NCBI GenBank assembly: GCA_026413765.1
Contig: JAOAKI010000014.1
Span: 38,896-102,895, forward strand
Origin: Candidatus Micrarchaeota archaeon
GTDB taxonomy: Archaea; Micrarchaeota; Micrarchaeia; Anstonellales; Anstonellaceae
Reading direction: 5' to 3'
DNA length: 64,000 nucleotides
The notes under the pieces were generated by a model. That model did not search any database. It saw nothing but the letters and a program-made list of their open reading frames with translations, and was not told where the DNA came from. This document shows positions 5,794 through 64,000 of the stretch, one piece after another (within the stretch, counting starts at the first letter, position 1; every line of letters starts with the position of its first letter). A program made the translations under genes and the position numbers.

Positions 5794-6678
5794 ATGCTTT
5801 TGGAAAATTTACCTGCCGAGCTTCCAGGGCTTGAAGTGCGCATCGCAATCGCAGTCGTCTTTACTGCCGCTGCCGCTTATTTTGACGCTTTCCGCAACAA
5901 ATGGGTCCCAAACAAGCTCGTCTACAGCTTTGCCATCTGCGCAGTGATTGTCAATTTGATCTTCTACAGCCAAGCCTCAATCTATGCTTTCGCAATCGGC
6001 ATAGCCGTCTTCGCAATCACCTATCTTCTTTACAAGGCGGGCCAGATTGGCGGAGCAGACGTGTTTGTCTTAAGCTCAATTTCACTTTGCATACCATATT
6101 TTTCCTCCTCTTTTCTTGCCCCCAAGCAAACAACCTTTTACCCTTTCATCCTTTCAGTCTTGCTTCCTGCAAGCATATTATTCATTATCCACATGCTGAC
6201 TAGGTTTTTGCCTTATGCGGCAAGATTAGTCATCCAAGGGAAAGTGCGTCTCTCTTTGCAGAGGGCGTTTGGCCCAATGCTTCTTTTGCTGTCCTTCACA
6301 GTGTTTATGCAGGCGTTATCCCTCTTTCCTGCGCCTTTCTCGCCGCTTCTGCTATTGCTTTTTTGGTTCCTCTTTCTTTCGCTGCTCTTCTTTTCGTTCT
6401 TCAAAGAAGAAATCAAAGCCTCTATGGTGGAGGAGCTTCCTCCTGACAAGCTTGAGGAAGAAGATGTACTTGCGCTCGAGCGAATTGACCCTGTGCTTGT
6501 CAAATCGTTGGGTCTCAAGCCGCTGCTTTCGCAAGAGCAAATAATCAAACTTAGGCAAGCAAACCTATCCAAAATCCCGGTTTACACAAAGATGCCATTC
6601 TTTTTGCCATACTTGTTTTTTGGCCTTCTTTTTGCCTTGCTTTTCGGCGATCTCTTCTTATACTTGTTTCCTTATTAG
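5794..6678 (+). CDS. archaeal type IV prepilin/preflagellin peptidase (A24 family) with a C-terminal extension
   Basis: Polytopic membrane protein with the first catalytic Asp context (YFDAFRNKWVPNKL, cf. D..IPn) and a GGADV motif (cf. GGGD). Confidence 0.6.
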   Translation: MLLENLPAELPGLEVRIAIAVVFTAAAAYFDAFRNKWVPNKLVYSFAICAVIVNLIFYSQASIYAFAIGIAVFAITYLLYKAGQIGGADVFVLSSISLCIPYFSSSFLAPKQTTFYPFILSVLLPASILFIIHMLTRFLPYAARLVIQGKVRLSLQRAFGPMLLLLSFTVFMQALSLFPAPFSPLLLLLFWFLFLSLLFFSFFKEEIKASMVEELPPDKLEEEDVLALERIDPVLVKSLGLKPLLSQEQIIKLRQANLSKIPVYTKMPFFLPYLFFGLLFALLFGDLFLYLFPY

Positions 6679-13220: not shown

Positions 13221-16200
13221 ATGAAGAGGCTTTTCATCCTTTTGCTATTTTTTTCATGCCTCTCAGCAGAGCGTTTCAGCGATTGCATCAATCCTTCTGC
13301 TCTTGAGCGCTTTTGGCTTTCTCCTTCTTATGTCTCCTCAAACCCATACATCTACAACTTTGGTTTTTCGCGCATCTACTCGTTGTCGTTTGAAAAAACA
13401 TTGCCGAGCCTGGGCGCAGACAACGCCTCAATTCTAAGCTGGGATGAGCTTCGCTCAGCTTATGGGCTGAAAGAAAACCAAGAGCTCCTCCCAATCAAAA
13501 AGGGCCTTCAAGGCGCCTCAGAAGCGCTGGCTGCAGCCAAAGAGGCCTCTTATTCTGCCCAATCTTCCATGCTGAAAGTCAAAGAGCTTGCCAAAGAATT
13601 TGAATATTCCGCAGAGAACGTTGCGCTTTTTGCGGCAGGGGTATTTTTTCTTCCGACCTCCCCTCTTATTTTCGAGATGGTGGTGCTTTACAAGTTTTGG
13701 AAAACAGGCGAAGCGTACTATTATGCGACCACCTTCCCAAACAATTATGCGGAAGCTCTTTCGAACTTCGCAGATGCTTATGAGCAGCTGAACTCTGCTT
13801 CAATCCAAGCGGCTTTTTTGGCGCAGAAAGCTTATGATGAGCTGGAGCTTGCAGGCGCAGGCAGCCCCGCCTACAGCGGCGTCGCAAAAGAGCCATTTTT
13901 CTATGCACAATCGAAGGCATCGGTTTTCTCCCCTTTCTGCTTTAAGCAGAGGCAGCTTTCAGACAGCATCGCTGAATATTTTGCAAGCAAGCCTCAGCTG
14001 CCCGACTTTTCGAACCTCAGCTTCGGAAGATACCTCGAGCTTGCGGGCGGAAAAGAGAACTCCTCGATTATTGTCTTTATCGGGCTTTACCAAAACCTCT
14101 CCGAAGCATACAAAGAAATGGAAAACGAATATCTGCAAGCAGAATTCCAAGCAAAAAACAAGCTGGCTAGTCTTTCGTTGAAGATTGAGGAGTTGCGCAG
14201 ACAAGATATCCATCTTATACCTGATGCCCAGCCAGCCCAGCTGCGCGAAGTCTCGGTTGGCAAGGAATTTTCTGGGATTGCAAGCGGCCTTGTTCAGGCA
14301 GAAAGCGAATATGAAAAGGCAAGCAGGCTTCTCCAAGCCTCAAAAGAAGCAAAATCCTCAAAAATGAAAGACTATCTTGCATCCGCAATAAGCCTTGCCA
14401 AAGAATCAGCAGAGACTTCAGAAAATGCTTTATCCTCCCTTTCCTCTGTGCACGCCTCCGCCATTCTTGCAGTTGAAAACACGCAAACCCTTGCCGACCG
14501 GACAATCAAGAGAGCGCAGGAAACCCTGCAGCCTCCTGCCTCGCTTGCGGCTTCGCACAATACTATCTTGGCAAACAGCCTTTTAAATGACGCAAAAGCA
14601 GCCTATAGCCAAGCTTCGCTTGAGCCAACCTTAGGCAAGAAATACAAAGCCTACTTTACCGCCTATCGCCTTGCCGATTCCGCCCTCGTGCTTTCTTCGG
14701 ATGCAGGCTCTGCAGATTCCAAAAGCCGCCTTCTTGAGCAGCTCAATTCTTTTGCAAGCTTTCTGGACGCGCTGGAAAAGGACGGCTTTGATGTCGAATA
14801 CGAAAGGCAGCAAGCCAAAGAGCTGCAAAGCTTGCTTTCTTCCTCCTCTTCATACACAGGCGAGCTTTTCCAAAAAATCAGCAAGCTTTTGGCAGACAGG
14901 AAAGAATTTTTGCTGCAGCAGCTTTCTTCCAAAGCCGCCCGGCTGGAGGCTGATTTTTGCGCCTTGAAAGAGGATGTGTCTATTCTGCGGAGGCAATCCA
15001 TGCTTCTTCTGCCTGAATTCGACCAGCTTTCTGCATATTTTGCCGGATGCAAGCTGGATTTGGAGAGGGCGGCAGGCAAGCTCAAAAGCATCCAAGAGTC
15101 ATTGTCAAAGGCAAGGCTTGACGCGCAAAGGAAAATACCAGAATTCCTTTCTTTCGAGCTTTCAAAAAATGCAAAAGCATTTGAGTTGCTGCCAAGCCCA
15201 ATTTTGGGAAAAAAGCAAAGGGCGCAAATTACGATTTCCACCGTAAATCCCTCCCCTTTTGCCTCAAATTCCCCAATTTCATTCCATGCAAAAACGACAA
15301 TTCCTGTCTATTCCTCTGAAATCGTCTCTGGAAATGTGATGGATGCATTTGGGGCAGAGTCAGGCTCGACAATCACTTTGCCCTCGGTTTCGGCATACCA
15401 AAACATAATTCTCAAATTCGAAAAAGATTACGAGCCGGCGCAGCGAATCTCCTCTTCTGAAAAATGCAAGGTGGCATCGCCCGAAGGAGCATGGGTGGAA
15501 AGGGCAATTTCGGTGTTCTCCAAGTCGGACCTAGAAACTCTTTATCTAGATGAAAAAGTCGACGGGCAAGTTGAGGACGCATATGCGCATATTTCAGGAA
15601 GAGCTTACCGGCTCTACCAATCTGATGGCAGCCTGAAAGGCCCAATCTACTTTTTGCCAGCAGGCCAGCACACGATTTCAGTCAGGTTCCTTCTTTCAAA
15701 GCCATTCTCACTTGCGCAAAAAGAGCGCGTGCATTCTACCGAAAGCGGCAAGCACAAAATATCCTATATCGTGGAGGTGCAAAACATTTCTGTGGCTTGC
15801 GAAGAGTTCTCAATAACTCTTTCAGAGCCTTTCCCTGCCACTAATTTTTCAGTTGAGGGATTTGATTTCTACAAACCCTCTAAAATCTCGTTTTTGTCCT
15901 ATGCTGGCAGGACATCAGCCGCCTTTTCATTCCAACTGCAAAGCTCTGCCCCAAAATTCCTGGTCTCTTTCGAGATTGCTGACGTTCAGGCTGCGCTTTC
16001 AGATGCGCTCATGCAGGCGGAATTGCAAGTGCTTTACCACAACCGCTCAAAAGATGCCGAGCTTCTCTCAACCGCAAAACTTCTGCTGCAGCAAAACAAA
16101 ACAAAGGAAGCGCTTGCGCTGCTTTCGCAAATAGGCTCTCGCCCAAGCTTGCCTGAGCCGAAAGAAGAACAGTTTGAAAAAGAAAACACGCAAGCAATCG

Positions 16201-17252
16201 AAGCAATTTCTCTTGCAAAAGAGGCCCTCTCCTCTATCCAAGCTTATGATTCTCCATATTTTGCTCAGCTTTCCAGCCTGCTTTTTGATCTGCAAGAAGG
16301 GCAAAACCAGTCGTTGAAATTGCTTGAGGAAGGGAAATCCGACGCAGCCACCGCCATGCTAAGAAAGCGCATAGAGAAATACCGGCTGTCGCTTTCCTCT
16401 CTTTCTTTTAAGGCGGCCTCAGAGGCGGCAGACTCCTTGTCAGAAGCCAAGACAGCAGCCACCCAAAGCCTGCTTTTTTCTGAGATTGAAGAAGACATAA
16501 AGAAGGCGCACCTGCTTTATTCCCAAGGCAATCACCTCTCCTCGCTTCAGCTTTCCTTGAGCGCGATTGCGAAGCTCAAGAAGCTAAAAGAGCTCAGCCA
16601 GCAGCAAGAGCAAGAGCAAATCAGCCAAGCAGAAGAAATAAAAGCCAAATTTGCAGCCGAAAAACAGAAAGTCGAAACGCTCATCGCAAACTATTCCCAG
16701 CAATATTTTGCCCTCACCTCGCAAAGCAGACGCAAGCTGCTTTATACGCCTTCTGCTGCTTCGGAGGAGCTGGAAGCTGCCTCCAAAAAGCTTGCCGCCG
16801 CCTTCAAGCTAAAAGATGGCAAAAAAATCCTTTCAGAAGCAAACGCCTCCCTTACGCTTCTTCTTGAGCTTGAAAGTAAGCTCCAATCCATGCTCAGCCA
16901 AATAAAATCAAACGCCGATTCCTCTTTAGAGGTGGCAAGAATAGCCTTTCTTGAGGCAAACAAAACAGCTCAAAAAGAAGAGGCAGAGATGCTTCTAAAG
17001 GAGCTTTCAAAGTCCGAGGAGCTCTTTGCAAACGCCTTGTATGCGGATTCACTTGCGCTCTCTGAGAAAGTCATCAAAGCGGCAAACGCGATTGTCTCAA
17101 GGAATGCGCAACCAACCGACTTCAGGCTTGTCGGCCTTGGCATTGCCTCTCTTTTGTTCATTGCACTTGCAGTCTGGGCGTTTTCCTCTGGAATGAAGCA
17201 GCCGAAGCCAAAGAAACAAATACCGAAAGCAAGCCAAGAAAAGCAGCCCTAG
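13221..17252 (+). CDS. 1343-aa secreted A/S/L/E/K-rich coiled-coil surface protein with a C-terminal TM anchor
   Basis: Signal peptide MKRLFILLLFFSCLSA, long alpha-helical low-complexity regions, a central beta-rich segment (~aa 690-900), and C-terminal LVGLGIASLLFIALAVWAF plus a basic tail. Confidence 0.7.
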   Translation: MKRLFILLLFFSCLSAERFSDCINPSALERFWLSPSYVSSNPYIYNFGFSRIYSLSFEKTLPSLGADNASILSWDELRSAYGLKENQELLPIKKGLQGASEALAAAKEASYSAQSSMLKVKELAKEFEYSAENVALFAAGVFFLPTSPLIFEMVVLYKFWKTGEAYYYATTFPNNYAEALSNFADAYEQLNSASIQAAFLAQKAYDELELAGAGSPAYSGVAKEPFFYAQSKASVFSPFCFKQRQLSDSIAEYFASKPQLPDFSNLSFGRYLELAGGKENSSIIVFIGLYQNLSEAYKEMENEYLQAEFQAKNKLASLSLKIEELRRQDIHLIPDAQPAQLREVSVGKEFSGIASGLVQAESEYEKASRLLQASKEAKSSKMKDYLASAISLAKESAETSENALSSLSSVHASAILAVENTQTLADRTIKRAQETLQPPASLAASHNTILANSLLNDAKAAYSQASLEPTLGKKYKAYFTAYRLADSALVLSSDAGSADSKSRLLEQLNSFASFLDALEKDGFDVEYERQQAKELQSLLSSSSSYTGELFQKISKLLADRKEFLLQQLSSKAARLEADFCALKEDVSILRRQSMLLLPEFDQLSAYFAGCKLDLERAAGKLKSIQESLSKARLDAQRKIPEFLSFELSKNAKAFELLPSPILGKKQRAQITISTVNPSPFASNSPISFHAKTTIPVYSSEIVSGNVMDAFGAESGSTITLPSVSAYQNIILKFEKDYEPAQRISSSEKCKVASPEGAWVERAISVFSKSDLETLYLDEKVDGQVEDAYAHISGRAYRLYQSDGSLKGPIYFLPAGQHTISVRFLLSKPFSLAQKERVHSTESGKHKISYIVEVQNISVACEEFSITLSEPFPATNFSVEGFDFYKPSKISFLSYAGRTSAAFSFQLQSSAPKFLVSFEIADVQAALSDALMQAELQVLYHNRSKDAELLSTAKLLLQQNKTKEALALLSQIGSRPSLPEPKEEQFEKENTQAIEAISLAKEALSSIQAYDSPYFAQLSSLLFDLQEGQNQSLKLLEEGKSDAATAMLRKRIEKYRLSLSSLSFKAASEAADSLSEAKTAATQSLLFSEIEEDIKKAHLLYSQGNHLSSLQLSLSAIAKLKKLKELSQQQEQEQISQAEEIKAKFAAEKQKVETLIANYSQQYFALTSQSRRKLLYTPSAASEELEAASKKLAAAFKLKDGKKILSEANASLTLLLELESKLQSMLSQIKSNADSSLEVARIAFLEANKTAQKEEAEMLLKELSKSEELFANALYADSLALSEKVIKAANAIVSRNAQPTDFRLVGLGIASLLFIALAVWAFSSGMKQPKPKKQIPKASQEKQP

Positions 17253-37469: not shown

Positions 37470-37799
37470 ATGCGTACCTTGAGATTAGTGTTTCTCATAT
37501 TCCTTGCACTCTCATCCATCTTATTTGCATCTCAGCAACCAACCCAAAAGCTCAAGGACGCCTTGCAGCAGCTGTGTGTTGGCGTGAGGGACCTGATTCC
37601 AGTGGCGGCAATGACGATGGTTCTTCTTGCCGCAGTTATCTATGCGACAGGGCAGATGATGGGGGCAGAAACCCGAGCAAGGGCAAACGTTTGGGCAACT
37701 TCTTGCCTTACAGGGGCGCTCATAGGAATATTGATAGCAGTGATTGCCCCTTCAATCCTAACTAACCTTGCCCCCCCAGGAACGCAAGTCAACTGCTAA
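37470..37799 (+). CDS. small secreted two-helix membrane protein resembling VirB2/TrbC conjugative pilin (CedA1/TedC-like?)
   Basis: Signal peptide, then two hydrophobic helices separated by a short charged loop (..AAMTMVLLAAVIYATGQMMGAETRARANVWATSCLTGALIGILIAVIAP..), 109 aa. Confidence 0.35.
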   Translation: MRTLRLVFLIFLALSSILFASQQPTQKLKDALQQLCVGVRDLIPVAAMTMVLLAAVIYATGQMMGAETRARANVWATSCLTGALIGILIAVIAPSILTNLAPPGTQVNC

Positions 37800-44695: not shown

Positions 44696-45736
44696 ATGAT
44701 AAATATCCAGCTGCTTTCCAAGCTTTCGGAATCTTTCGGGGTTCCTGGGCACGAGAAAGAGATTGCAGCATTGATGGAATCGGAATTCAAAAAATTGGGC
44801 TATAGGGTGGAGATTGACAGGTTCGGGAATGTCATTGCTCACTCTCCTGCAGCAAAAAAGAAGCCGCTCATGCTTGGCGCGCACATGGACGAAATCGGCA
44901 TGCTCGTGAAATTTATCAACGAAAAAGGATTCATCCGATTCATCAAAATTGGCGGCATTGACAACCGAGTCCTAGTCAATCAGCGTGTAGTCATCCAGAC
45001 TGAAAAAGGCAACATCTACGGAGTCATTGGAAGCAAGCCGCCTCACATGCAGAAGCCAGAAGACATGAAAATGGCAATAGACAACAAGTCACTGTTCATT
45101 GACATTGGCGCAAAAAGCAGGAAAGAAGTCGAAAAAATGGGAGTCAGAATAGGCGACCCAATATGCTTTGACATAAGCACAAAAGTGCTGAACAACAAGC
45201 TCATCACAGGCAAAGCACTCGATGACAGGGTCGGCTGCTACATCCTGCTTGAGGTTGCAAAGAAAGTAAAAAACAGGAACGTCGTTTTGGTTGGCACTGC
45301 GCAAGAGGAAGTCTCGACTTTTGGCAAGGGGGCAATGATTGCTGCGTACAACCTAGAGCCATCCGCATTCATTGCAATCGACACCGCAATAGCAGGCGAC
45401 CACCCCGAAATGAGCGAAGACGAGGCGCTGATTCATCTTTATAAGGGGCCCGCAATCTGCCTTGTTGAGGCTGGCGGCCGCGGAAACGTGGCAGACTCGA
45501 TCATGAAGGAAAAATGCATCTCAGTCGCAAAGAAAAACAAAATCCCCTACCAGATTGAAGTGATTGAAGGGGGCGCAACTGACGCAGCCTCAGTCTACGG
45601 GGAAAAGGGCGGCATACCGTCAATTTCGATCAATGTTCCGACAAGATATATACACTCAAATGTCGCAGTCTGCGCTATTGACGACATTGAGAAGACTACA
45701 AATTATATTGTCAAGCTGGTGGAAGAGCTTGCATGA
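44696..45736 (+). CDS. M42 family peptidase (TET aminopeptidase/FrvX-like)
   Basis: GAHMDEIG motif, ~346 aa. Confidence 0.75.
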   Translation: MINIQLLSKLSESFGVPGHEKEIAALMESEFKKLGYRVEIDRFGNVIAHSPAAKKKPLMLGAHMDEIGMLVKFINEKGFIRFIKIGGIDNRVLVNQRVVIQTEKGNIYGVIGSKPPHMQKPEDMKMAIDNKSLFIDIGAKSRKEVEKMGVRIGDPICFDISTKVLNNKLITGKALDDRVGCYILLEVAKKVKNRNVVLVGTAQEEVSTFGKGAMIAAYNLEPSAFIAIDTAIAGDHPEMSEDEALIHLYKGPAICLVEAGGRGNVADSIMKEKCISVAKKNKIPYQIEVIEGGATDAASVYGEKGGIPSISINVPTRYIHSNVAVCAIDDIEKTTNYIVKLVEELA

Positions 45737-45767
45737 TGCAAGTTTCAAGAAAGGAGTCTTCACTTTT

Positions 45768-46292
45768 TTGCTAGCCTCCATCTTCCTTTTCGCCTTGCTT
45801 GCTGCATCCGCGCTTGCGCTTGAAGCAAAAAAGCCAGATAAGGCATTTCAGAAGTACCATCTTTTGCGGGTTCAGGAGCTTGCAGTCAGGACCGCAATCA
45901 TGGAATCGGTTTCAGCATCTGCGCAAAAGGCGCTTTATGCCGCAATCGCACTGGACCAAGAGCCGTATTTCTACATTAAAGGGGCAGTGCATGAAAAGCT
46001 TGTACAGCTGGAGGAAGAATTTCGAAAAGAAGGCTTTGACGTGGTCATCTGGTGCGGCTTCCCCTCCGCCAAGCAGCTTGCAGATGCATCAAAAGAAATG
46101 CAAAAGGCGGGAAAAGCGCTTAGCCCAGCAAGCACTGTTCAGGTTTCCGCAGGAAGCTGCCTTCACAGCATCCATGTGGGTCTTGCTGAAAGGAAGGTGC
46201 AGCTTTCATCGTTCGGGTTTTCGCTTTATTCAGAACCGCTTGGCGCAGGAGTTGCGTTCAAAATGCCTCCAAATGCTGAGGTTGATTTTTGA
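45768..46292 (+). CDS. secreted protein, first gene of the pilin-like operon (TTG start proposed)
   Basis: TTG at 45768 gives (M)LASIFLFALLAASALA|LEAKK, a canonical signal peptide; the stop overlaps the next ATG (TGATG). Confidence 0.4.
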   Translation: MLASIFLFALLAASALALEAKKPDKAFQKYHLLRVQELAVRTAIMESVSASAQKALYAAIALDQEPYFYIKGAVHEKLVQLEEEFRKEGFDVVIWCGFPSAKQLADASKEMQKAGKALSPASTVQVSAGSCLHSIHVGLAERKVQLSSFGFSLYSEPLGAGVAFKMPPNAEVDF

Positions 46293-46633
46293 TGTGCAAA
46301 AAATATTTTGGCCAAGCCTCATTTGAGGCGCTTCTTTCTTTTGCCTTGCTGCTTTCTTGCATCACACTGCTGTTTTTTCATGCAAACGGCATTTGCGGCA
46401 AATTCGTTTACCAAATAGAGGCAAGCGCAGAAAAGATCCGTCTCTCAAACGCAGCATTGCTTCTCGACAGCGCAGCTTCAAGCAAAGTCTTTGCCCAATT
46501 TCAGGAAAATCTGACAAACATATCCGTTCAAGGCGATTCGGTCTTCTCGCCGAAATACCCGCAAATCAGGCAAAAGCTTCTTCATAACGCATCAGTGGGT
46601 CAGGATGGGACAATCTATGTGCAAGCCCAATAG
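46292..46633 (+). CDS. type IV pilin-like protein with class III signal peptide
   Basis: N-terminus MCKKYFG|QASFEALLSFALLLSCITLLF (basic, G, Q, acidic at +5, then a hydrophobic helix). Confidence 0.55.
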   Translation: MCKKYFGQASFEALLSFALLLSCITLLFFHANGICGKFVYQIEASAEKIRLSNAALLLDSAASSKVFAQFQENLTNISVQGDSVFSPKYPQIRQKLLHNASVGQDGTIYVQAQ

Positions 46634-47003
46634 CTCGAAGGCCTTTTATTCGTTCGATGCAGCCTTTGCATTATTATTTGCCCTCATGATTTACCTTGCT
46701 TTCTCTTCGATAATTTTTTTGGTTTCGGAAGGATTCTCATCCTATGCGGATTCTTATTCAATGTCTGCTGCCTCTGCCCGCATATCTTTCCTCATTTTAG
46801 ACAAAATGAAAAAAGGGGAGTTTGATTTCGGCTGTGAAAAGATAAGGAAGCAGGTTGGGCTTTCTTATCTGAGGGCAGAGGCGCATGTGGGCGACCAAGA
46901 ATTCATTTCAGAGGCAGGAAGCAAAGGGAAACAGCTTTTCTGCACTTCCAGGCTTTTCATTTTTTCAGGCAAGGTCTCCAAGCTGGTGGTGTGCGTGTCA
47001 TGA
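46617..47003 (+). CDS. type IV pilin-like protein with class III signal peptide
   Basis: N-terminus ..NSSKAF|YSFDAAFALLFALMIYLAF. Confidence 0.5.
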   Translation: MCKPNSSKAFYSFDAAFALLFALMIYLAFSSIIFLVSEGFSSYADSYSMSAASARISFLILDKMKKGEFDFGCEKIRKQVGLSYLRAEAHVGDQEFISEAGSKGKQLFCTSRLFIFSGKVSKLVVCVS

Positions 47004-47338
47004 AAGCATTTGCGATGTCTTTCGAAGCAGGCCTGTCGTTCTTGCTTTTGCTGTCTGCCCTGGCAATTGTGCAATTTTTTGCGCCAGCAAAGTTCAGCCA
47101 GTCAGATTTCTTTCTTTGCTTGGATGTCGCGCAGATTTTGGTCGAATCCTCCGCATTCTCAGAAGAGCGCATGCTTGAGTCAATGCTACAAGAGGCGTCC
47201 TTTCTCTCGGGTCTTTGCATTCAGGCAAGCCACTTTTCCACTTGCTCTTATGAAAGGCAGGAAAAGCTTTCCATACATTTTCCAGTGTGGGCAAACGGCT
47301 CGATAGCAAGCCAGAGCGTTTCGTGCTGGAGGCACTAG
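47000..47338 (+). CDS. type IV pilin-like protein with class III signal peptide
   Basis: N-terminus MKAF|AMSFEAGLSFLLLLSALAIV; ATGA overlap with the upstream gene. Confidence 0.5.
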   Translation: MKAFAMSFEAGLSFLLLLSALAIVQFFAPAKFSQSDFFLCLDVAQILVESSAFSEERMLESMLQEASFLSGLCIQASHFSTCSYERQEKLSIHFPVWANGSIASQSVSCWRH

Positions 47339-47377
47339 CCTTTTATTGGTTGCAGAATAGATTTTCGTGGTGGTTGC

Positions 47378-48415
47378 GTGGTAAGGCTTGCCTTTGTGTT
47401 TTTGCTTGCAATGTCGGTTCTCGTCCAGTCGCACAACCTTTCAATCAAAGTGCTGCTTCTCCCAGACACCATTGCGGTAGGCACAAACGTTACTGTCCTG
47501 CACGACGGTGTTGAGCTCTTTACAAAAAAGGCAGACAAAAACGGAATTGCTTCATTCGAAGTGCCATCTGGAAGCTATTTTGTCATCTTGAAGAGAGGCG
47601 GCTATCCAACACACGTGAACCTTTTGAACGTCGAAAAGGACACAGAAATTACTCTGTTTTTGCGCAATCAAATTTCTTACGGCGGCATCTACGGGCAAAT
47701 CAGAGGCCCCCAGAATTTCTCAAACGTTTCAATATCGGTCTATTCGGGCCAAAAGCTGGTAAAGAAATTCAGCAGCAAGGCAGACAACACCCCAAACAAG
47801 GACGGCTATTTTTTCATCCAATATCTCCCAGAAGGCGAATATAGGTTTGTTTTTGATGCACCTGGCTTTGTCTCAAAGGAAGAGGAGCAGCAAATATTCG
47901 AAGGCCAATTTAATGAGCTGAATGTTTTCCTTGAAAAGGAGAAGCCAGCAGAAGAGCCAAAAGCAAACGCCACCGCGCCTGCAAAGCCAACCTTGGTTGT
48001 GAGCTCGGACATGCAGAAATACTCGAAAGTGACTGTCACTCTTTCAGTAGGCAATGCCCCACTGCCAGGAAAGCAAATCATTGTGAAGACCCCTGCAGGC
48101 AACCTTGAGCTGACAACATCGGACAAAGGGCAAGCATTCTTCAATGCAGCAGAAGCAGGAACATATGTTGTCTCTTATGAAGACATCAACTATACTTTTT
48201 TCATCCAAGAGGATGAAAAGCCAAGCATAGCTCAGCCTCCAGCTGTGCAAGAGCAGGCAAGCAGCCAGCCCAAAGCCGAAGCTGCTGAGGAAAGCCAAGC
48301 AAGCATTGCAATTTTTGGCTTGGCGGCAGGCATGATTTTTATCTTCATGGCAATAACAGTTGTCGTGCTGTGGCAGGTGCTCAAAAAAGGCAAGCACAAG
48401 CGCCACAAAAGGTGA
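47378..48415 (+). CDS. surface protein with carboxypeptidase-regulatory-like beta-sandwich domains and a C-terminal TM anchor
   Basis: Signal peptide, repeated ..[33 protein letters not shown].. modules, C-terminal [23 protein letters not shown] plus a [10 protein letters not shown] tail. Confidence 0.55.
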
Positions 48416-49377
48416 GCATTTTGTTCGACCCTCAAAATTTCATCAAAGAGTCGGTTGAAGACATAAAAAGAAAAGTAGGCTCGAATGTTGCTGTGATTGC
48501 TGTCTCTGGCGGAGTGGATTCTTCGGTTGCAGCCGCTCTTGCAACAAGAGCCCTCCAAAACAACGTTCATTGCATTTTTGTGGACACCGGCCTGATGAGA
48601 AAAAATGAAGCACAAAATGTGCAGGCTTTGATGTCAAAGGCAGGAGTCAGCGTCCAGATAATTGATGCAAGCAGCCTCTTCCTTTCTGCGCTCAAAGGCG
48701 TGTCAAATCCAGAAAAGAAGCGCAAAATCATCGGGAAGCTCTTTATAAAAGTTTTCGAGGCAGAGGCGAAAAAGAGGAAGGCAAAATTTTTGGTCCAGGG
48801 CACAATTGCTCCAGATTGGATTGAGTCAGGAGCAGGACTCCGAGACACAATCAAGTCTCACCATAACGTTGGGGGGTTGCCGAAAAAGATGGGCATGAAG
48901 CTGGTTGAGCCGCTGCGGGAGCTCTACAAGGACGAAGTAAGGAAAGTCGCATCTGCGCTTGGATTGCCCCAGCAGATAGTCAATAGGCAGCCATTTCCTG
49001 GCCCCGGTCTTGCAGTCCGCATAATAGGAGCAGTCAGCAAAAAGAAGCTGCAAATCATCCGTGAGGCATGCGCAATCGTCGAAGAAGAAATCGAGAAAGC
49101 CGCGCAAAGCGGCCAAATCCAGCGCCCTTGGCAATATTTTGCAGTGCTTCTTCCGCTGAAGTCGGTGGGCGTCTTAGGTGACGCAAGGGCTTATGGATAT
49201 ACAGTTGCAATAAGGGCAGTCGAAAGCATAGACGGAATGACTGCCAAACCCTCTCCCCTTCCAGCCGAGCTTCTGGAGACCATCTCAAACAGGATAACAC
49301 GCCAGCTCAAGCGGCAGGTCAACCGAGTGGTTTATGACACAACAAGCAAGCCACCTGCGACAATTGAGTGGGAATAG
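48412..49377 (+). CDS. guaA: GMP synthase, ATP-pyrophosphatase subunit B (split archaeal form)
   Basis: PP-loop SGGVDSSV; GTG start overlapping the upstream stop (GTGA). Confidence 0.85.
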
Positions 49378-49379
49378 CT

Positions 49380-49946
49380 ATGAGAATCGCAATCGTTGAT
49401 TTTGGGTCGCAATGGACGCATCGCATCCACCGCACTCTCAAATACTTGGGAGCAGAGTCTGAGATAGTGCCTGTCAAGACGCCTGTCAAAAAAATCCTGG
49501 CTTTCGACGCGCTTATTTTTTCTGGGGGCGCAATAAGAATCGCTTTGGGGGACGCAAACCAAACTGGAAACGCGGCAAAATACCTAAAAGAGTTCACAAA
49601 TCCCATCATGGGAATCTGCGCAGGGCAGCAATTCATCGGGTTGTTTTTTGGGGGCAAAGCACGAGAATCAAAAACCCCAGAATACGGCAAGGTGGAGCTG
49701 TTTGTCGATTTCCACAATGAGATTTTTGAAGGCTTGCCTGACCGCTTCACTGTATGGGCAAGCCACAACGATGAGGTAGTTGACACTCCAGGCTTCCAGG
49801 TTCTTGCGCACTCAAAAGACTGCTCAAATCACGCTTTCAAATCTCTCTCACGGCCAATCTATGGGTGCCTTTTTCACCCAGAAGTTGAGCACAGCCAATA
49901 CGGCAGCCAAATCTATGCCAATTTCATTAAAATCGCAAAAAAATGA
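49380..49946 (+). CDS. guaA: GMP synthase, glutamine amidotransferase subunit A
   Basis: Class I GATase G-x-C-x-G motif (GICAGQQ) and the HPE motif (FHPEV). Confidence 0.8.
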   Translation: MRIAIVDFGSQWTHRIHRTLKYLGAESEIVPVKTPVKKILAFDALIFSGGAIRIALGDANQTGNAAKYLKEFTNPIMGICAGQQFIGLFFGGKARESKTPEYGKVELFVDFHNEIFEGLPDRFTVWASHNDEVVDTPGFQVLAHSKDCSNHAFKSLSRPIYGCLFHPEVEHSQYGSQIYANFIKIAKK

Positions 49947-49949
49947 GAG

Positions 49950-50068
49950 TGCAGGGAGGGAGATTTGAACTCCCGATGACCTAAAGTCACCAGATTGCTT
50001 ATTGCCCTTTTGCAAAAGCAAATGGGATCTTGAGTCTGGCGCGTTAAACCTGGCTCCGCCATCCCTGC
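49950..50068 (-). tRNA. tRNA-Leu(CAA) containing a 33-nt intron at the canonical 37/38 position
   Basis: Minus-strand read: acceptor GCAGGGA/TCCCTGC, 3-bp D stem (class II), anticodon stem CCAGA/TCTGG with loop CUCAAGA interrupted after G37, extra arm TGAC..GTCA, T arm GGGAG-TTCAAAT-CTCCC, discriminator A. Confidence 0.8.
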
Positions 50069-50095: not shown

Positions 50096-51355
50096 TTAGG
50101 ATGGCGGCAAGCGAGCAGCTTCCATTTCCTCCTCAATCTCCTTCTCCCGCTTCTTTCTTCTGTAATACATGATGGTGTATGCCACAAAACCCAACACAAC
50201 AGCTATTGCAACATAATGCTCTAGCCCAAGCTTATCCAAAATCCCCTCTTCTTTCTTTTTCTCCTCGGCAGGCTTCTTTTCGGTTGGAATGACATAGCTC
50301 CCGCTGGCGGTTCCGCTATTGCCTTCCTTGTCTGTCACTTTTACGAGATATTTGACAATCGTGTCTTTTGGTGCAGGAGGTATCTTTGCCTCAAAAGTGT
50401 TGTATCCTATCGTATATGCAGGCACATAGCTAGTCTTGTTTTGGATTTCATACGAAAGGACCACGCTTGCTATTCCGCTTGCCTTGGGGCCAGGCTCCTG
50501 CACATAGACGTTTACCACCACTTCACCATTTTTTTGGATTCGGTGGTGCATCTCCGCTATCTTCGGCGGAGTCTTGTCGAAAACCAATTGCATCCTGTCT
50601 GAAGTCTTGAGGCTCAGCTGCATTTTTTTGAAGCTTTCGTTGTAGCGGACAACAAGATGGGGATTTTCATTTGTGATGTTTTCAAAGACTGCCTTGCCGC
50701 CTTCTACCTTTTTTGTTTGATTGTCTAGCTCAGCAACCGCCTCGACGGGCAATCCAAAGTCATCGACCACTTCCAGCTCAAACCTATATCTTGGGATAGT
50801 GATCGTTATTGCTTTGTCCTTGTCAAGCATCAAATCAGCGTTTCGGACAGTATTTTCAACCTCTGCCCTCACATTGTATTTGCCGGGTGGCAGCTGGAAA
50901 ATCGCATCTCCGTTTGTGTCAGTGCCTATTGTCCTGTTTCCAATAGTCACCTTTGCCGGCAGGGGCTTTCCATTCTGGTCTCTTACGCTGACTACTGCAA
51001 AATATGCAGTCACTTGCATGCTGTAAGTTCGGTCAATAGGGGGGTCATCCACCACCAAATTTGCGGTCTTCAATTCGGAGCCATATTTCACATAAAGCGT
51101 GTAGGTGTATTTTGTTTGCGATTTGATTTCTTCCCAATTAGTGAAGACTATCTCCACTGTGCCATTGGCTGAAGTGAGCTTTGGCTTGGTTTTCACATAT
51201 CCAGCGACAGAATTCAGCTGGTGCTCAACATATACTTGCGCCCCTTCAACAGGCCTTAAGCTCTGGTCAAAAACTTGGACCGTCAGTTTCTGGGTATAGC
51301 CGCAATATGCAGCCCCCACAAGCAATGCCAAAATGAAAATAGTCAGCTTCTGCAT
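50096..51355 (-). CDS. surface protein with carboxypeptidase-regulatory-like domains and a C-terminal TM anchor
   Basis: Signal peptide MQKLTIFILALLVGAAYC, several CarbopepD_reg-like modules, C-terminal YVAIAVVLGFVAYTIMYY plus a RRKKREKE tail. Confidence 0.55.
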   Translation of the reverse strand: MQKLTIFILALLVGAAYCGYTQKLTVQVFDQSLRPVEGAQVYVEHQLNSVAGYVKTKPKLTSANGTVEIVFTNWEEIKSQTKYTYTLYVKYGSELKTANLVVDDPPIDRTYSMQVTAYFAVVSVRDQNGKPLPAKVTIGNRTIGTDTNGDAIFQLPPGKYNVRAEVENTVRNADLMLDKDKAITITIPRYRFELEVVDDFGLPVEAVAELDNQTKKVEGGKAVFENITNENPHLVVRYNESFKKMQLSLKTSDRMQLVFDKTPPKIAEMHHRIQKNGEVVVNVYVQEPGPKASGIASVVLSYEIQNKTSYVPAYTIGYNTFEAKIPPAPKDTIVKYLVKVTDKEGNSGTASGSYVIPTEKKPAEEKKKEEGILDKLGLEHYVAIAVVLGFVAYTIMYYRRKKREKEIEEEMEAARLPPS

Positions 51356-51475: not shown

Positions 51476-51937
51476 ATGGGCGTTCGTATGAGAGGACAAG
51501 GTGCAACCGAGTATCTTGTCTTGCTTGCTGTGGTTTTGATTATTGCGCTGGTTTCAATTGCGCTGCTCGGGTTCTTCCCAGGGCTTGCCTCAGACGCAAA
51601 AATAACGCAGTCAAACACTTATTGGAGAGGCGAGGCAATGCCATTCAGCATTATAGAGCACTCTTTTGATTCTTCCGGAAACGGCAGCATCGTGATTACC
51701 AACAGAGACGCAAGCGGCACACTGACAATCACCAACATCACTGTGGGCAATGCAACATATTCAACCCCAACCGTTCTTGCCCCAGGCGACCAAAAAGTCA
51801 TCCCGCTTTCTGGAGCAGGCAGCGGCTCAGCCGGAGGCACTTACGAGTTTGATGTCAAGATCTCCTACACAAGTATTGGAGGCTTGCCAAAAACACAAAC
51901 CGGCAAATATCCCCTGATTGGGAAATTCTACTCTTAA
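51476..51937 (+). CDS. archaeal type IV pilin (class III signal peptide), candidate major pilin
   Basis: N-terminus ..MRGQGATEYLVLLAVVLIIALVSIALLGF matches [KR]G|Q..TEYL.. then a hydrophobic helix; TATA-like GCTTTTATATTC upstream. Confidence 0.65.
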   Translation: MGVRMRGQGATEYLVLLAVVLIIALVSIALLGFFPGLASDAKITQSNTYWRGEAMPFSIIEHSFDSSGNGSIVITNRDASGTLTITNITVGNATYSTPTVLAPGDQKVIPLSGAGSGSAGGTYEFDVKISYTSIGGLPKTQTGKYPLIGKFYS

Positions 51938-55881: not shown

Positions 55882-58026
55882 ATGAAAGGTGCGTTGTTTG
55901 CATGTTTGCTTCTTTTGATGGCAGCAAGCTTTTCCTATGTCATTCCTGAAGAGGAGCCAATTCTTGAAGATGTGACTCCTCCATCGCTTTCCACTTCGGT
56001 TTCAGTCAACGGAAACGTTTATACCCTCTCTGCTTCGGCTTCTGACCCAAGCGGGATTGCATCCATCAAGCTTTATCTGAGGAAATCAACGCAGGCGCAA
56101 TTCCAGCTTGTGAAATCTTGCTCTTCTTCACCTTGCATATACACAAGCGGTGATAGCGACGGCACTTACATTTTTTATGCAACCGCAACTGATGCTTCTC
56201 CAAACTCAAACCAGGCAATCTCGCCTGAAAAAACATTTGTGTTAAGCGGAGACACAACTCCCCCGCAAGTTTCTGCCTCTGCCACTGTGTCTGGGAATGT
56301 GGTGACTATAACAGCTTTCGCATCCGACCCAAGCGGCATATCCTCAATCAAAATTTATGTTGCAAAAGGCATGCTTGGCGGCCATGACCCATTTATAGAA
56401 GTAAAATCCTGCAGCTCTTCCCCCTGCCAGCATATTTCTGGATACAACAGCGGCTCTTATGTCTATTATGCCAAAGCGACAGATGCTTCTCCCAACCAAA
56501 ATTCCGCAAGCACTGCATACAGCACGTTTACTGTCGCATCAGCAACAACGCCACCAAATGTGATTGATGCTAATCTGCCTGTCGCAACAGTTGGAAAATC
56601 TTATTCTGGGGAAATAACAGCAAGCGGCGGAGATCCTCCCTACTCTTGGTCGATTGTGGAGGGCGCTCTTCCGCCAGGGCTTTTTCTTTCTTCAGGAGCC
56701 AACAAAGCGCAAATAACCGGAACGCCCACAAAAGCCGGCCTATATACTTTCGGAATTCGTGCCACAGACTCTCTAGGCCAAATTTCCACCACACGCATAT
56801 TTCAAATTTCAGTCATTGATTCTGTTAGCTGGAGCTGCACAATTTCTCCTTCCTCGCTTTCGCTTTCAGCAGGCTCAACGCAGAAGCTTTCAATAACTTG
56901 CTACAGAAAATCGCAGACAACCGGAAAAACAGATGAAGACGAGTGCCCGCCGATTTCTTGGCAGAGCACAATTGGCACAATCTCTGGAAACTCAAGGGGA
57001 GCCACTTTCAGCGCAGGCTCATCTGGAGGCTCAGGCACAATCACTGCATCAGGAAATGGATTTTCTTGCTCAGTTCCAGTTTCAGTCTCTAGCGGCACTG
57101 GGGGCGGCGGCAGTGGCGGAGGCGGGACTGGAGGTGGAGGCGGTGGCGGGGGCGGCAGTGGCGGAGGAGGGTTCAGAACATCAATAGGGGTCAGCGCCAC
57201 CTGCGTCAACAACCCAGTGACGATAAACGTCCGCTATCTGAGCAATGCTTCTGGCCAGCCAAAAGCAACAGTTGATGTGTATTATTACTCACAAAACAAA
57301 TTCAGCAAAGTATACACAAACACAATAAGCTCAACTTCCTCACTGTCGTTTGTGCCTTCCGAAATAGGCGCATACCAGATCCGCGTCTCACTTGGATCAG
57401 AGCAGACGACAGCAGACTTCACTATTCCTGCCTGCAGCCAAGAAGTCCTGCAAAACCCACAAAACATCACCTTGCAGCTTTCCCCAAGCAAAGAGACAAT
57501 ATTGAGCAAGAAAGTCACTTATACTGGCGGCTTTTCAAAAGAGTTCAGAGTCTATCGCATAACAGTTGGCTCAGATGTCACCTATGAGACCCAAATAGAC
57601 CTCTATTATGTGGCAAACGAATCACAAAACATCACAGTCCGGGACTTCATCCCCAACACAATTGTCTCAAACATGCAACAGATAACTTTCGAGCAGGCGC
57701 CTCGCAAAGTCGATTCTGCGCAAGCAGGCATTCTTGCTTTTGAATGGCCACTCAATGCGCAAAAAGGGCAGACCGTCCATTTCAAATACTCGTTCAGACG
57801 ACAAATAACTGACCAAATGGTTGCAAACATCCCTGCTCCAGTGGCTATCGCAGCCACGCAAGGAACCCAGCAGGTTGGTCTTTCATTGGGAGGAATAACC
57901 GACAGCGTTTCTGCTGCGTTGGTAGGTGCAATAGGAAGCAACTGGTGGGCAATTGTCCTCCTGCTGGCGCTGGTTGCGCTTGCAGTAATTTACATGTTTG
58001 TCTTTGGGACAAAAAAGGAAGGCTAA
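55882..58026 (+). CDS. 714-aa surface adhesin-like protein with tandem Ig-like repeats, a 'putative Ig' (dystroglycan/cadherin-like) domain, a Gly-rich linker and a C-terminal TM anchor
   Basis: Signal peptide; two ~100-aa repeats (..ASDPSGIASIKLY.. / ..ASDPSGISSIKIY..); GGDPPYSWSIVEGALPPGL..ITGTPTKAGLYTF..ATDSLGQ; (G)n linker at ~aa 405-432; C-terminal WWAIVLLLALVALAVIYMFVF. Confidence 0.7.
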   Translation: MKGALFACLLLLMAASFSYVIPEEEPILEDVTPPSLSTSVSVNGNVYTLSASASDPSGIASIKLYLRKSTQAQFQLVKSCSSSPCIYTSGDSDGTYIFYATATDASPNSNQAISPEKTFVLSGDTTPPQVSASATVSGNVVTITAFASDPSGISSIKIYVAKGMLGGHDPFIEVKSCSSSPCQHISGYNSGSYVYYAKATDASPNQNSASTAYSTFTVASATTPPNVIDANLPVATVGKSYSGEITASGGDPPYSWSIVEGALPPGLFLSSGANKAQITGTPTKAGLYTFGIRATDSLGQISTTRIFQISVIDSVSWSCTISPSSLSLSAGSTQKLSITCYRKSQTTGKTDEDECPPISWQSTIGTISGNSRGATFSAGSSGGSGTITASGNGFSCSVPVSVSSGTGGGGSGGGGTGGGGGGGGGSGGGGFRTSIGVSATCVNNPVTINVRYLSNASGQPKATVDVYYYSQNKFSKVYTNTISSTSSLSFVPSEIGAYQIRVSLGSEQTTADFTIPACSQEVLQNPQNITLQLSPSKETILSKKVTYTGGFSKEFRVYRITVGSDVTYETQIDLYYVANESQNITVRDFIPNTIVSNMQQITFEQAPRKVDSAQAGILAFEWPLNAQKGQTVHFKYSFRRQITDQMVANIPAPVAIAATQGTQQVGLSLGGITDSVSAALVGAIGSNWWAIVLLLALVALAVIYMFVFGTKKEG
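57100..57175. repeat. simple (GGN)n glycine-codon repeat inside the adhesin gene
   Basis: ggcggcggcagtggcggaggcgggactggaggtggaggcggtggcggggg..; the opposite strand yields a spurious poly-Pro ORF. Confidence 0.6.
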
Positions 58027-61412: not shown

Positions 61413-61794
61413 CTTTTTCAAAATGGCATTGCAGTCAGCAGACTCATTTGCAGCCGCCAGATTGGCAAGCCGCACTTTGTTTGGAAGACAGCTTGCCACA
61501 AAAGAAAATCTTTTTAAATCATTCTTTCCTAATAAAAAGCCGCAACCATCAGGGCAAAGCCCTGACATTAGCAGCAGAGGTGTTTTGGCTGCGATGCATA
61601 CAACAATTTGAGTGTTAAGCACCTCCACCGCTTATTTTTGCGGTGAGAGGGAGGCTCACCGCGTTTGGGCCGCTATTTTTGCAGTGATGATGCCGCGTTC
61701 CCCTTTTTGGGGAAGCGTTAGCCTTCGCGGGCAACTTACATGCAGAAATGCATGTATTTCATGAGTATGAAGAAAGCAACTGAAGTTCACCGAT

Positions 61795-64000
61795 ATGCAT
61801 GTTACGCCAATCAGTGGATGGCTAGGCTTCGGTAGTATCACGGCCCCGTAGCAAGCTGCGAAAAGCTCCGGGTAGGAGCAGGCATCCTTTGATCCGGAGA
61901 TCGGGCGGAGTGCCGCAAGGCACAGAATACCCCGGGAATTAAAACATTCTAGTACCGGGAGGAAAAGAAACCAACAGGGATTCGGTGAGTAAGGGTGACT
62001 GAAAGCCGAAGAGCGCAAACCGAATGTAGCATGGCAACATGCTGCAGATGTGGGCGGCGCATCCGTTTCCAGATTCGAGGTCGGCTGGAAAGCCGCGCCA
62101 TAGAGGGTGACAGCCCCGTAGATCAATGGAAGCGGAGCAAAGCAATCAAGAGTAGTGCTCATTGGGTATTGGGCATGAAGATGGCGGGACTAACCGCCAA
62201 CGCTAAATATAACCGAAGACCGATAGCGAATTAGTAACGCGAGTGAACGCTGAAAAGGAGTCCGAAAGGACAGTCAAAAGAACCTGAAACTGATTGGTGA
62301 AAGGTTGATGCAGCGTGGAAGGGCACGACTGCCAAAGCAACCAGTCGAGAGGCTGGAAGCAAGGCAGGCATACCAGCGTTGCATCGTTCTTCTCGAAGCA
62401 AGAGCCAGGGAGTTGATGTGGTGTGGCGAGGCGAAAGCCGAAGCGAAAGCGAGTGGGCGCATCGAAAGAAAGGCCCGTCGTCCGAAAGGGCGATCAGTCA
62501 CACTCATCAGACCCGAAGCCGATGTGAACTAAGCGAGCGCAGGTCGAAGCCAGCCTGACGGTTGGTGGAGGACCGCAACCGGTGCTAGTATATTCTGCTC
62601 GGGTGACGCGCGCTTAGGGGTGATAGTCCAATCGAACTCGGCAATAGCGGGTTCCCCTCGAAATGTCCCTCAGGACAGCCTCGATGGAGGTTGGATGCGG
62701 GGTAGAGCACTGATCGTAAGGACTGGCTCCGAAAGGGGTCACCTTGCTGTCAAACTCCGAATCTGCATCCACCGTAGAAGTCGGGAGTCGGGTTCTGCTG
62801 GGTAAGCTAGCAGGCCATCACGGGAACGACCGGTGCCGCAGTTAAGGTCCCTAAATTCAGGCTAAGTGCTAATCCAAAAGGAGTGTCCGGTCTAAAACAG
62901 CTGGAAGGTAGGCTTAGAAGCAGCCATCCTTTAAACAACGCGTAATAGCGGACCAGTCTAGATCGCACATTCCGAAGATGATCGGGGCTAAGCCTGGTAC
63001 CGAAACTGCGGAGTTGCCCCAAAAGGGCAACTGGTAGGGGGGCGAGCTGGTTGGGCAGAAGCAGGGCCGTGAGGTCCTGTGGACTGGCCAGTTATGAATA
63101 TCCTGGTATTAGTAACAGCATATCCAGGCGAGAATCCTGGACGCCGCATAGCACACGGGTTTCTGGGCAATGTTCTTCAGCTCAGAGTTAGGCGGTCCTA
63201 AGACAGCAGCTAATTGCGAGCTGTCGAAAGGGAAAACGGTTAAAATTCCGTTCCTGCACAGGTAGACGCGGCAACGCAAGTTGTGCTTCTGACGCTTTGG
63301 GGTAGGGGTGGAGGAGGAGACTTCTCTTAAAGCTCATAATGCCTTCGAGTCTCATTGTGAGGAGAAGAGGCATAAAGAGCCCAAAACATCCTGATCCCTG
63401 GAGCCCATGAAAAGGGAGCATGACCGATCCTGTGCACCCGTACCTAGAACTATTACAGGTGCTGCTGGCAGAACAAGCCAAGGCGTGTCAGGAGAATTCA
63501 GCTAAGGGAACTCGGCAAATTAGTGGCTTAACTTCGGGAGAAGCCATGCCTGCCTTTCCGCAAGGATGGGCAGGTCGCAGTGACAAGGGGAGGTCGACTG
63601 TTTACCAAAAACACAACTCGCAGCCAATCGGAAACGATTAGTACTGCGGGTGACGCCTGCTCACTACTGGTACGTGAAAGCCTGTTCCAACGGGCTTAAG
63701 CGCCAGCAAAGAGCGGGGGTAACTCTGACCCTCTTAAGGTAGCGTAATACCTCGCCGCTTAATTGGTGGCTTGCATGAAGGGCGTAACGAGCCTCCCGCT
63801 GTCCCTAGCTGGAACCTGGTGAACTTACTACTCTGTGAGTATGCAGAGGACTTCTAGGGGGAAACGAAGACCCCGTGGAGCTTTACTATAGCCTGATCTT
63901 GTGATACGAGCGTTGCTGCGGAGCGTAAATGGGAGCCGCTATGTTGCGCCTCTCGGGGTGCAAATAGGCGCCGTTGTAACACCATTCAGCAGCGCTTGTA
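61795..64000 (+). rRNA. rrl: 23S (large subunit) rRNA, 5' ~2.2 kb; continues beyond the window; 5' end approximate (+/-50 nt)
   Basis: Domain I ..CAGTGGATGGCTAGGCTTCGG..GATCCGGAGAT..GGGAGGAAAAGAAACCAACAGGGATTC..; domain V ..CTTAAGGTAGCGTAATACC..GGCGTAACGAG.. and GAAGACCCCGTGGAGCTTTACTATAGCCTGA near 63870 (E. coli ~2060), which places the 5' end near 61800. Confidence 0.85.

Follow-up and report, generated by a model that had tools for sequence, protein, structure and literature searches.

In a 64,000-nucleotide stretch of DNA from Candidatus Micrarchaeota archaeon (Anstonellaceae; GenBank assembly GCA_026413765.1, contig JAOAKI010000014.1, positions 38,896 to 102,895 of the forward strand), hereafter the window, four consecutive genes that we call g1 to g4 probably encode a stand-alone accessory (minor-pilin or pseudopilus-like) set of four Micrarchaeota-specific, co-transcribed type IV pilin-like proteins. 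Judged by their sequences, the four families are new, unannotated and devoid of a Pfam domain, and the kind of system that they represent is already known. An initial annotation of this DNA, made without database searches, had described a minor-pilin/pseudopilus-type module in which three pilin-like genes lie between the genes for a secreted protein and a surface protein (g5); the pilin-like nature of this module held up and was widened to four genes, whereas its function in a filament is something we can only infer. The five chained open reading frames (ORFs) were found on the + strand where they had been placed, except for the start of g1, and the 113, 128 and 112 residues of g2, g3 and g4 match the 114, 129 and 113 codons given at that time:

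45729 to 46292, + strand: g1, class III signal protein of 187 residues, the largest of g1-g4
46292 to 46633, + strand: g2, class III signal protein of 113 residues
46617 to 47003, + strand: g3, class III signal protein of 128 residues (132 residues from the NCBI start, ATG 46605)
47000 to 47338, + strand: g4, class III signal protein of 112 residues
47378 to 48415, + strand: g5, surface protein of 345 residues

The genes follow each other closely: g1 and g2 are joined by a TGATG in which ATG 46292 overlaps the TGA at 46290-46292, g2 and g3 overlap by 17 nt (29 nt if the NCBI g3 start at 46605 is used), g3 and g4 share an ATGA (47000-47003), and a gap of 39 nt separates g4 from g5.

The prepilin-type N-termini that had been quoted for the three small proteins are present in the window and are kept in their orthologs. 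g2 begins with MCKKYFG/QASFEALLSF (the slash marks the predicted cleavage site), with Q at +1 and E at +5 in a QxSxE..L-type motif; both residues occur in 12/12 orthologs, all of which have G or A at -1 and nine of which have K or R at -2. The g3 N-terminus, MCKPNSSKA/FYSFDAAFALL, has D at +5 and is complemented by a C-terminal Cys109-Cys126 pair. The g3 family counts 42 members, all annotated as hypothetical, with A or G at -1 (40/40), R or K at -2 (25/40), F or Y at +1 (38/40), S at +3 (40/40) and D at +5 (40/40), and with a conserved C-terminal motif (C..RLA.L.G..VRLEAC.S). g4 starts with MKA/FAMSFEAGLSF and has a conserved E at +6 and four invariant Cys; its leader, a basic residue followed by a G/A site, is present throughout the clade of related loci in which the module lies between an M42 aminopeptidase gene and guaA (the M42-to-guaA clade, described below). 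In g2-g4 the acidic residue at +5 or +6 lies inside the hydrophobic helix, in register with E5 of the candidate major pilin that is encoded elsewhere in the window. Each of the four proteins, g1 included, has a single hydrophobic segment, which is N-terminal, and the conserved Cys pairs among the g1, g3 and g4 alignments imply an extracytoplasmic location.

Some leaders and termini vary within the families. RAFF.FDAA-like motifs precede the hydrophobic helix in g3-family leaders, twice in P0026 and three times in P0033, and the g4 ortholog of locus L005 (5984-6412) has an extra, degenerate copy of the cleavage site (KSGRLISLES ahead of KSGYLLSLEA), the DNA copies of the leader motif being 63 nt apart and identical at 26/33 bases. 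A conserved ..EP[VI] closes g2 in L005-L008, L010, L012, L013 and L015 (QPI in L015) and is missing from the window g2 and its closest relatives (..VQAQ, ..IKLP). The g2 ortholog of L006 (~6624-6672) has no canonical in-frame start codon; reading a run of seven A as eight brings an upstream ATG into frame (MERVKKIG/QVSLEAL), so that the defect is probably a homopolymer assembly error and less likely a real frameshift.

The first gene had been taken for a plain secreted protein starting at TTG 45768. We dropped this start, because a GGTGG that sits 6 nt 5' of TTG 45729, the NCBI call and the starts of the orthologs favour TTG 45729, from which g1 reads as the fourth member with a class III signal (MHDASFKKG/VFTFLLASIFLF). 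NCBI protein N3G80_04290, from a Micrarchaeota metagenome-assembled genome, is g1 (100% identity over all 187 residues), and in g1 orthologs an ATG stands directly ahead of the KG motif (MAKGVFAF, MMGKGFLSF, MVMKGFLSF). When 1.84 billion representatives were searched exhaustively with HMMER, 55 relatives of g1 came back, nearly all of which align from residue 2 on. Metagenomes scanned with the g1 alignment gave 600 pattern matches, none of which was confirmed. Across 51 aligned sequences the cleavage site has G at -1 in 49 and K or R at -2 in 45, and the mature start has F at +1 in 41 and F at +4 in 48; position +5 is aliphatic in all 51 and acidic in none. g1 is the best conserved class-III-signal member of the four; it also has two conserved cysteines, Cys109 and Cys144, and a WCG motif.

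Within the window such N-termini are rare. When every six-frame ORF of the 64 kb was scanned with a relaxed class III pattern, no more than five matched, namely g1, g3, g4, the candidate major pilin and one internal helix of a prepilin peptidase, and since there are just these five, the three that fall within 1.3 kb form a cluster far beyond chance.

The AlphaFold2 model of g3, built from the 42-sequence alignment, has a predicted local distance difference test score (pLDDT) of 91.5 and consists of a continuous helix of 53 residues (13-65), a short helix (73-80) and a four-stranded antiparallel sheet across residues 84-127, in whose final two strands the invariant Cys109 and Cys126 are located. 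A long alpha1 helix followed by a four-stranded sheet is how type IV pilins are classically laid out, and the modelled g3 is pilin-like in architecture. The g1 model (pLDDT 94.9) has an N-terminal helix (7-33), an interruption of the helix at the conserved Pro36, and a novel ectodomain. g1 is longer than the other three proteins, its +5 position is not acidic and its ectodomain is non-canonical; it is the candidate terminal or non-polymerising member.

Sequence comparisons of g1-g4 gave no better than weak matches. PF04021 (Class_IIIsignal), the one weak match that recurs among g2 orthologs, is seen in 4/12 of them (best E = 0.085) and does not match the window g2. The best profile match among PDB sequences, also weak, is between the g3 N-terminus and the archaellin of M. 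hungatei (Methanospirillum; 5tfy, E = 0.083), in which archaellin residue 3 is aligned to g3 residue 12, as fits cleavage after A9. When the four families were aligned to each other with hhalign, the alignment was confined to the N-terminal motif; because only this motif aligns, g1-g4 are distinct families and not demonstrable paralogs. Bacterial minor pilins are likewise separate families.

Comparison with related loci (numbered with the prefix L) revealed that the order g1-g2-g3-g4 is constant in all those read, in six different neighbourhoods. In the window the module lies between housekeeping genes:

44696 to 45736, upstream of g1: M42 aminopeptidase (306.9 bits)
from GTG 48412, downstream of g5: guaA (ATP-PPase subunit), followed by the GATase subunit gene

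The M42-g1-g2-g3-g4-g5-guaA-GATase block recurs in L001/L003, L004, L005, L006, L007, L008/L009 and L010/L011 with varying outer flanks, a 235-residue ORF being inserted ahead of g5 in L005. At more distant loci the four genes lie downstream of Rpb7-Spt4 (L012, L013, L014), between a PMT glycosyltransferase and an aminotransferase (L015/L016) or in yet another neighbourhood (L018). No g5, M42 or guaA gene is found near g1-g4 at these distant loci outside the M42-to-guaA clade, which makes the conserved core exactly four genes and g5 a clade-specific neighbour. Wherever a homolog is labelled with an organism name, that organism belongs to Micrarchaeota (Anstonellaceae, Anstonellales, 'Ca. Gugararchaeum' or unclassified). 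The genes of the block in the window (44696-49946) overlap or are separated by gaps of at most ~40 nt, and the chain thus extends both ways from the module: the M42 peptidase gene (stop at 45736) runs 8 nt into g1, which starts at 45729, and the guaA start overlaps the g5 stop (GTGA, 48412-48415). Beyond this kept adjacency, nothing was found that ties the M42 aminopeptidase or guaA functionally to g1-g4.

Two further genes of the window, both noticed initially, bear on how g1-g4 might work:

5794 to 6678, + strand: A24-family (FlaK/PibD-type) prepilin peptidase, with a PF01478 match
51476 to 51937, + strand: candidate major pilin of 153 residues

The peptidase scores 35.2 bits with PF01478 (gathering score 26.5), has D31 and a GGAD motif at residues 86-89, and is presumed to be the processing enzyme for g1-g4. 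The candidate major pilin (MGVRMRG/QGATEYLVLLAVVLIIALVS), which is conserved, reads RG/QGATEYL around the predicted cleavage site; it reaches 20.1 bits with PF04021, just under the gathering score of 23.7, and has weak UpsA/UpsB matches. It is 83% identical to its L001 ortholog, against 36-48% for g1-g5 between the same genomes, and this much slower evolution fits a constrained major subunit accompanied by fast-evolving accessory subunits. We infer that g1-g4 are cleaved, incorporated into a filament and act in its priming. The N-terminal hydrophobic helix, one per protein, would insert g1-g4 into the membrane; where a leader exists, the A24 prepilin peptidase (5794-6678) would cut off this short basic segment after G or A; and the four proteins would jointly form a low-abundance set that primes, caps or decorates a filament of the major pilin (51476-51937), with the assembly ATPase and platform protein encoded elsewhere in the genome. 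Several minor pilins and S-layer-like accessory proteins are typical of archaeal type IV pilus (T4P) systems, and archaeal pilin loci often stand apart from the machinery genes (PMC4858521; bioRxiv 10.64898/2026.04.22.720090); two T4P machineries and one FlaK-like peptidase have been described for Micrarchaeota (Mia14) and are common to many Micrarchaea (PMC5498576).

Several results weigh against this proposal. As had been noted initially for the window, no T2SSE ATPase or T2SSF domain occurs in any large ORF of the 64 kb, and the 8-10 kb read on either side of the module in L001, L007, L008, L010, L013, L015 and L018 contained neither T2SSE nor T2SSF/TadC. The linkage to pilus genes in relatives, on which the initial annotation had staked its module, was therefore not seen in any of the six neighbourhoods, and because the module never adjoins ATPase or TadC genes, assembly of g1-g4 into a filament stays an indirect conclusion. 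No match at E ≤ 1 was obtained for the window g1-g4 in Pfam and NCBIfam, profiles of the four found nothing significant among PDB sequences and no pilin family above threshold, and pilins were not among the top matches of fold searches with the models. The model of g1 is pilin-like in its N-terminus only, the ectodomain not being a pilin fold. The window g2 has F instead of K/R at -2, with KK at -4/-5. Leaderless g4 orthologs, in which the conserved Glu is residue 5 counted from Met1, were found at four loci outside the M42-to-guaA clade:

L012, 1920-2099: leaderless g4 ortholog (MQTLE)
L013, 10089-10406: leaderless g4 ortholog (MHVLE)
L015, 9813-10211: leaderless g4 ortholog (MMSFE)
L018, 11309-11680 and 10602-10901: leaderless g4 ortholog (MLSFE) and leaderless g2

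In L018 g2 likewise lacks a leader (MEVELSLL..), and without a leader g4 (and the L018 g2) cannot be a substrate of the peptidase in those lineages; a 'pre-matured' pilin-like N-terminus with no need for the peptidase is unusual. Finally, M42 and guaA are as tightly linked to the module as g5 is, so that tight packing alone says little on function.

Much of this is what the main rival explanation would predict, which we regard as unlikely, if far from negligible: that g1-g4 are not filament subunits and form a membrane-anchored extracellular complex with a pilus-independent role in the envelope or in host contact, their pilin-like N-terminus serving only as a signal-anchor or as a peptidase-processed anchor, as in archaeal bindosome substrate-binding proteins. 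The isolation from ATPase and TadC genes, the non-pilin ectodomain of g1 with its helix break at Pro36, the leaderless g4 and the fold searches all speak for it, as do the module's neighbours, which are housekeeping genes (M42/guaA, Rpb7-Spt4) or glycosyltransferases, and the widespread occurrence of class III signals on archaeal non-pilin proteins (bioRxiv 10.64898/2026.04.22.720090). However, the canonical 53-residue alpha1 and four-stranded sheet of the g3 model are at odds with such a complex, the invariant acidic +5 residue of g2 and g3 is a hallmark of the contacts between subunits of type IV filaments and would not normally be expected in a plain anchor, and stand-alone pilin loci, away from the machinery, are common in archaea (PMC4858521). 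We favour the accessory pilin-like set.

A second alternative, which we consider improbable, takes in g5 and holds that g1-g5 are an envelope module in which a short pseudopilus of g1-g4 anchors or opens the surface layer (S-layer), g5 is S-layer-like and g1-g4 do not decorate a long adhesive pilus. The carboxypeptidase-regulatory-like domains and C-terminal anchor first read in g5 were borne out: PF13620 (CarboxypepD_reg) matches with 57 bits (gathering score 32.3) and PF17802 with 26.2 bits, and the protein consists of a Sec-type signal, about three CarboxypepD_reg/prealbumin-like beta-sandwich domains, a Pro/Gln/Glu-rich low-complexity linker and a C-terminal transmembrane helix, with hydrophobic segments at 1-23 and 306-338, a basic tail after the latter and six N-x-S/T sequons. 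A Sec signal, a beta-sandwich ectodomain and a C-terminal transmembrane helix in a protein encoded beside pilin genes are the features of S-layer-like anchored proteins, and g5 also has a weak match, far below cut-off, to the S-layer glycoprotein family NF052345 (E = 6.7e-7). Such C-terminally anchored, S-layer-like proteins are frequent in archaeal T4P loci (PMC4858521), and those at type IV filament (TFF) loci in archaea have been suggested to prime the wall so that filaments can pass (bioRxiv 10.64898/2026.04.22.720090). g5 directly follows g4 in the window and in 7/7 related loci of the M42-to-guaA clade (L001, L004-L008, L010), but M42 and guaA are equally conserved neighbours, so this linkage may be frozen synteny, and g5 is not next to g1-g4 in L013, L015 and L018. 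In the reading that we favour, g5 is a surface glycoprotein with an S-layer-like architecture and a C-terminal anchor, co-transcribed in this clade but outside the core module.

The suggestion that g5 could be a tip adhesin (PilY1-like) was rejected as unlikely: g5 keeps its C-terminal transmembrane anchor, its domains are all beta-sandwiches, and it has no place in the conserved core, being absent beside g1-g4 in L013, L015 and L018. Another surface protein of the window (50096-51355), initially called a paralog of g5, indeed shares its domain type and overall architecture; paralogy of sequence was rejected (BLASTP E = 0.93). Two more ORFs on the + strand, one of 1343 residues without a Pfam match (13221-17252) and one of 714 residues with He_PIG/Big domains (55882-58026), may likewise be large surface proteins, which would make them other candidates for attachment to the host. 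To call the module the most likely attachment apparatus, as was done initially, is speculation.

That g1-g4 are ordinary Sec-dependent secreted or membrane proteins that look like class III substrates by chance is very improbable, for although no curated pilin model matched above threshold, the [KR]-[GA]-aromatic-x-S-x-[DE] pattern is conserved position by position over dozens of diverged sequences, an acidic residue lies within the hydrophobic core, five such N-termini occur in 64 kb with three inside 1.3 kb, and in the high-confidence models of g1 and g3 the hydrophobic segment starts a long structural helix and not a removable signal.

Elsewhere in the window, a 109-residue protein (37470-37799, + strand) with a signal peptide and two transmembrane helices scores 23.9 bits with TrbC/VirB2, below the gathering score of 27.9. 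A protein of L015 (4462-4797) shares its GAETRARA..WAT motif, and L001 has a 108-residue gene with a faint TrbC match at the equivalent position upstream of the Na/H exchanger; the window protein could be a pilin for conjugation or for Ced/Ted-type DNA transfer in Micrarchaeota. Other genes of the window encode PolB, Pus10, an archaeal-type phosphoenolpyruvate carboxylase, geranylgeranyl reductases and archaeal large-subunit ribosomal RNA (rRNA). The archaeal 23S rRNA gene starts at 61790 (+ strand) and continues past the window end at 64000, which accounts for the rise of the GC content to 0.54 in the last 2 kb. The tRNA seen initially was recovered at 49950-50068 (- strand; Rfam, 45.6 bits), where it separates the GATase gene from the gene for the surface protein at 50096-51355; it was not reported by ARAGORN and, being 119 nt long, probably bears an intron.

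Micrarchaeota are small-genome, host-associated DPANN archaea, and pili-like connections between them and their hosts have been observed by microscopy, with poorly defined components. The four families, all of which are annotated as 'hypothetical protein', are concrete candidates for what makes up the accessory or tip portion of the pilus in Micrarchaeota, and they provide a marker module for annotation.

Among known systems, the archaeal minor pilins (EpdA/EpdB/EpdC of Methanococcus maripaludis and those of euryarchaeal T4P loci; PMC4858521, PMC3875500) resemble g1-g4 in their tandem pilin-like genes, in the presumed processing by an A24 peptidase, in the company of a C-terminally anchored S-layer-like protein and in a separately encoded major pilin. 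In contrast to these minor pilins, g1-g4 are without detectable sequence similarity (PF04021 stays under threshold and no other family matches), never lie beside ATPase or platform genes, form a fixed set and order of four, have an aromatic residue at +1 in g1, g3 and g4, as at bacterial G/F sites, and not Q, and include a g4 that is leaderless in some lineages. With the substrate-binding proteins of the Sulfolobales bindosome they share a prepilin-like N-terminus and genes away from the TFF machinery, and the g1 ectodomain is non-pilin as well; unlike bindosome proteins, g1-g4 have neither a substrate-binding domain nor an adjacent ABC transporter, are small (112-187 residues) and include, in g3, a protein of pilin architecture.

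The minor-pilin quartets of bacteria (GspH-I-J-K of type II secretion, FimU-PilV-PilW-PilX of T4aP, and ComGD-GE-GF-GG) likewise have four different pilin-like genes in one operon. Subunits of the GspK/PilX type have no acidic residue at +5, and in g1-g4, too, a single member, the largest (g1), is the only one without it; the head domains evolve fast in both. Homology of g1-g4 to the GspHIJK, FimU-PilVWX or ComGD-GG subunits was not found, the gene lacking E5 is first (g1) and not last, alpha1 of g1 is interrupted, and g1-g4 come from an archaeon with archaeal-type machinery. The parallel is one of analogy only. On that analogy we suggest tentatively, and with considerable doubt, that g1-g4 might be an archaeal functional counterpart of the bacterial four-subunit tip/priming complex, with g1 as the cap and with g4 leaderless in some lineages. 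Were this so, type IV filaments of both domains would follow the principle of a quartet initiation complex, be it general or reinvented by convergence, and DPANN symbionts would have a defined pilus tip, specific to the phylum, on which contact with the host could depend. If g1-g4 form a priming or tip complex, a principle so far known to hold for bacterial type IV filaments would reach into the archaea.

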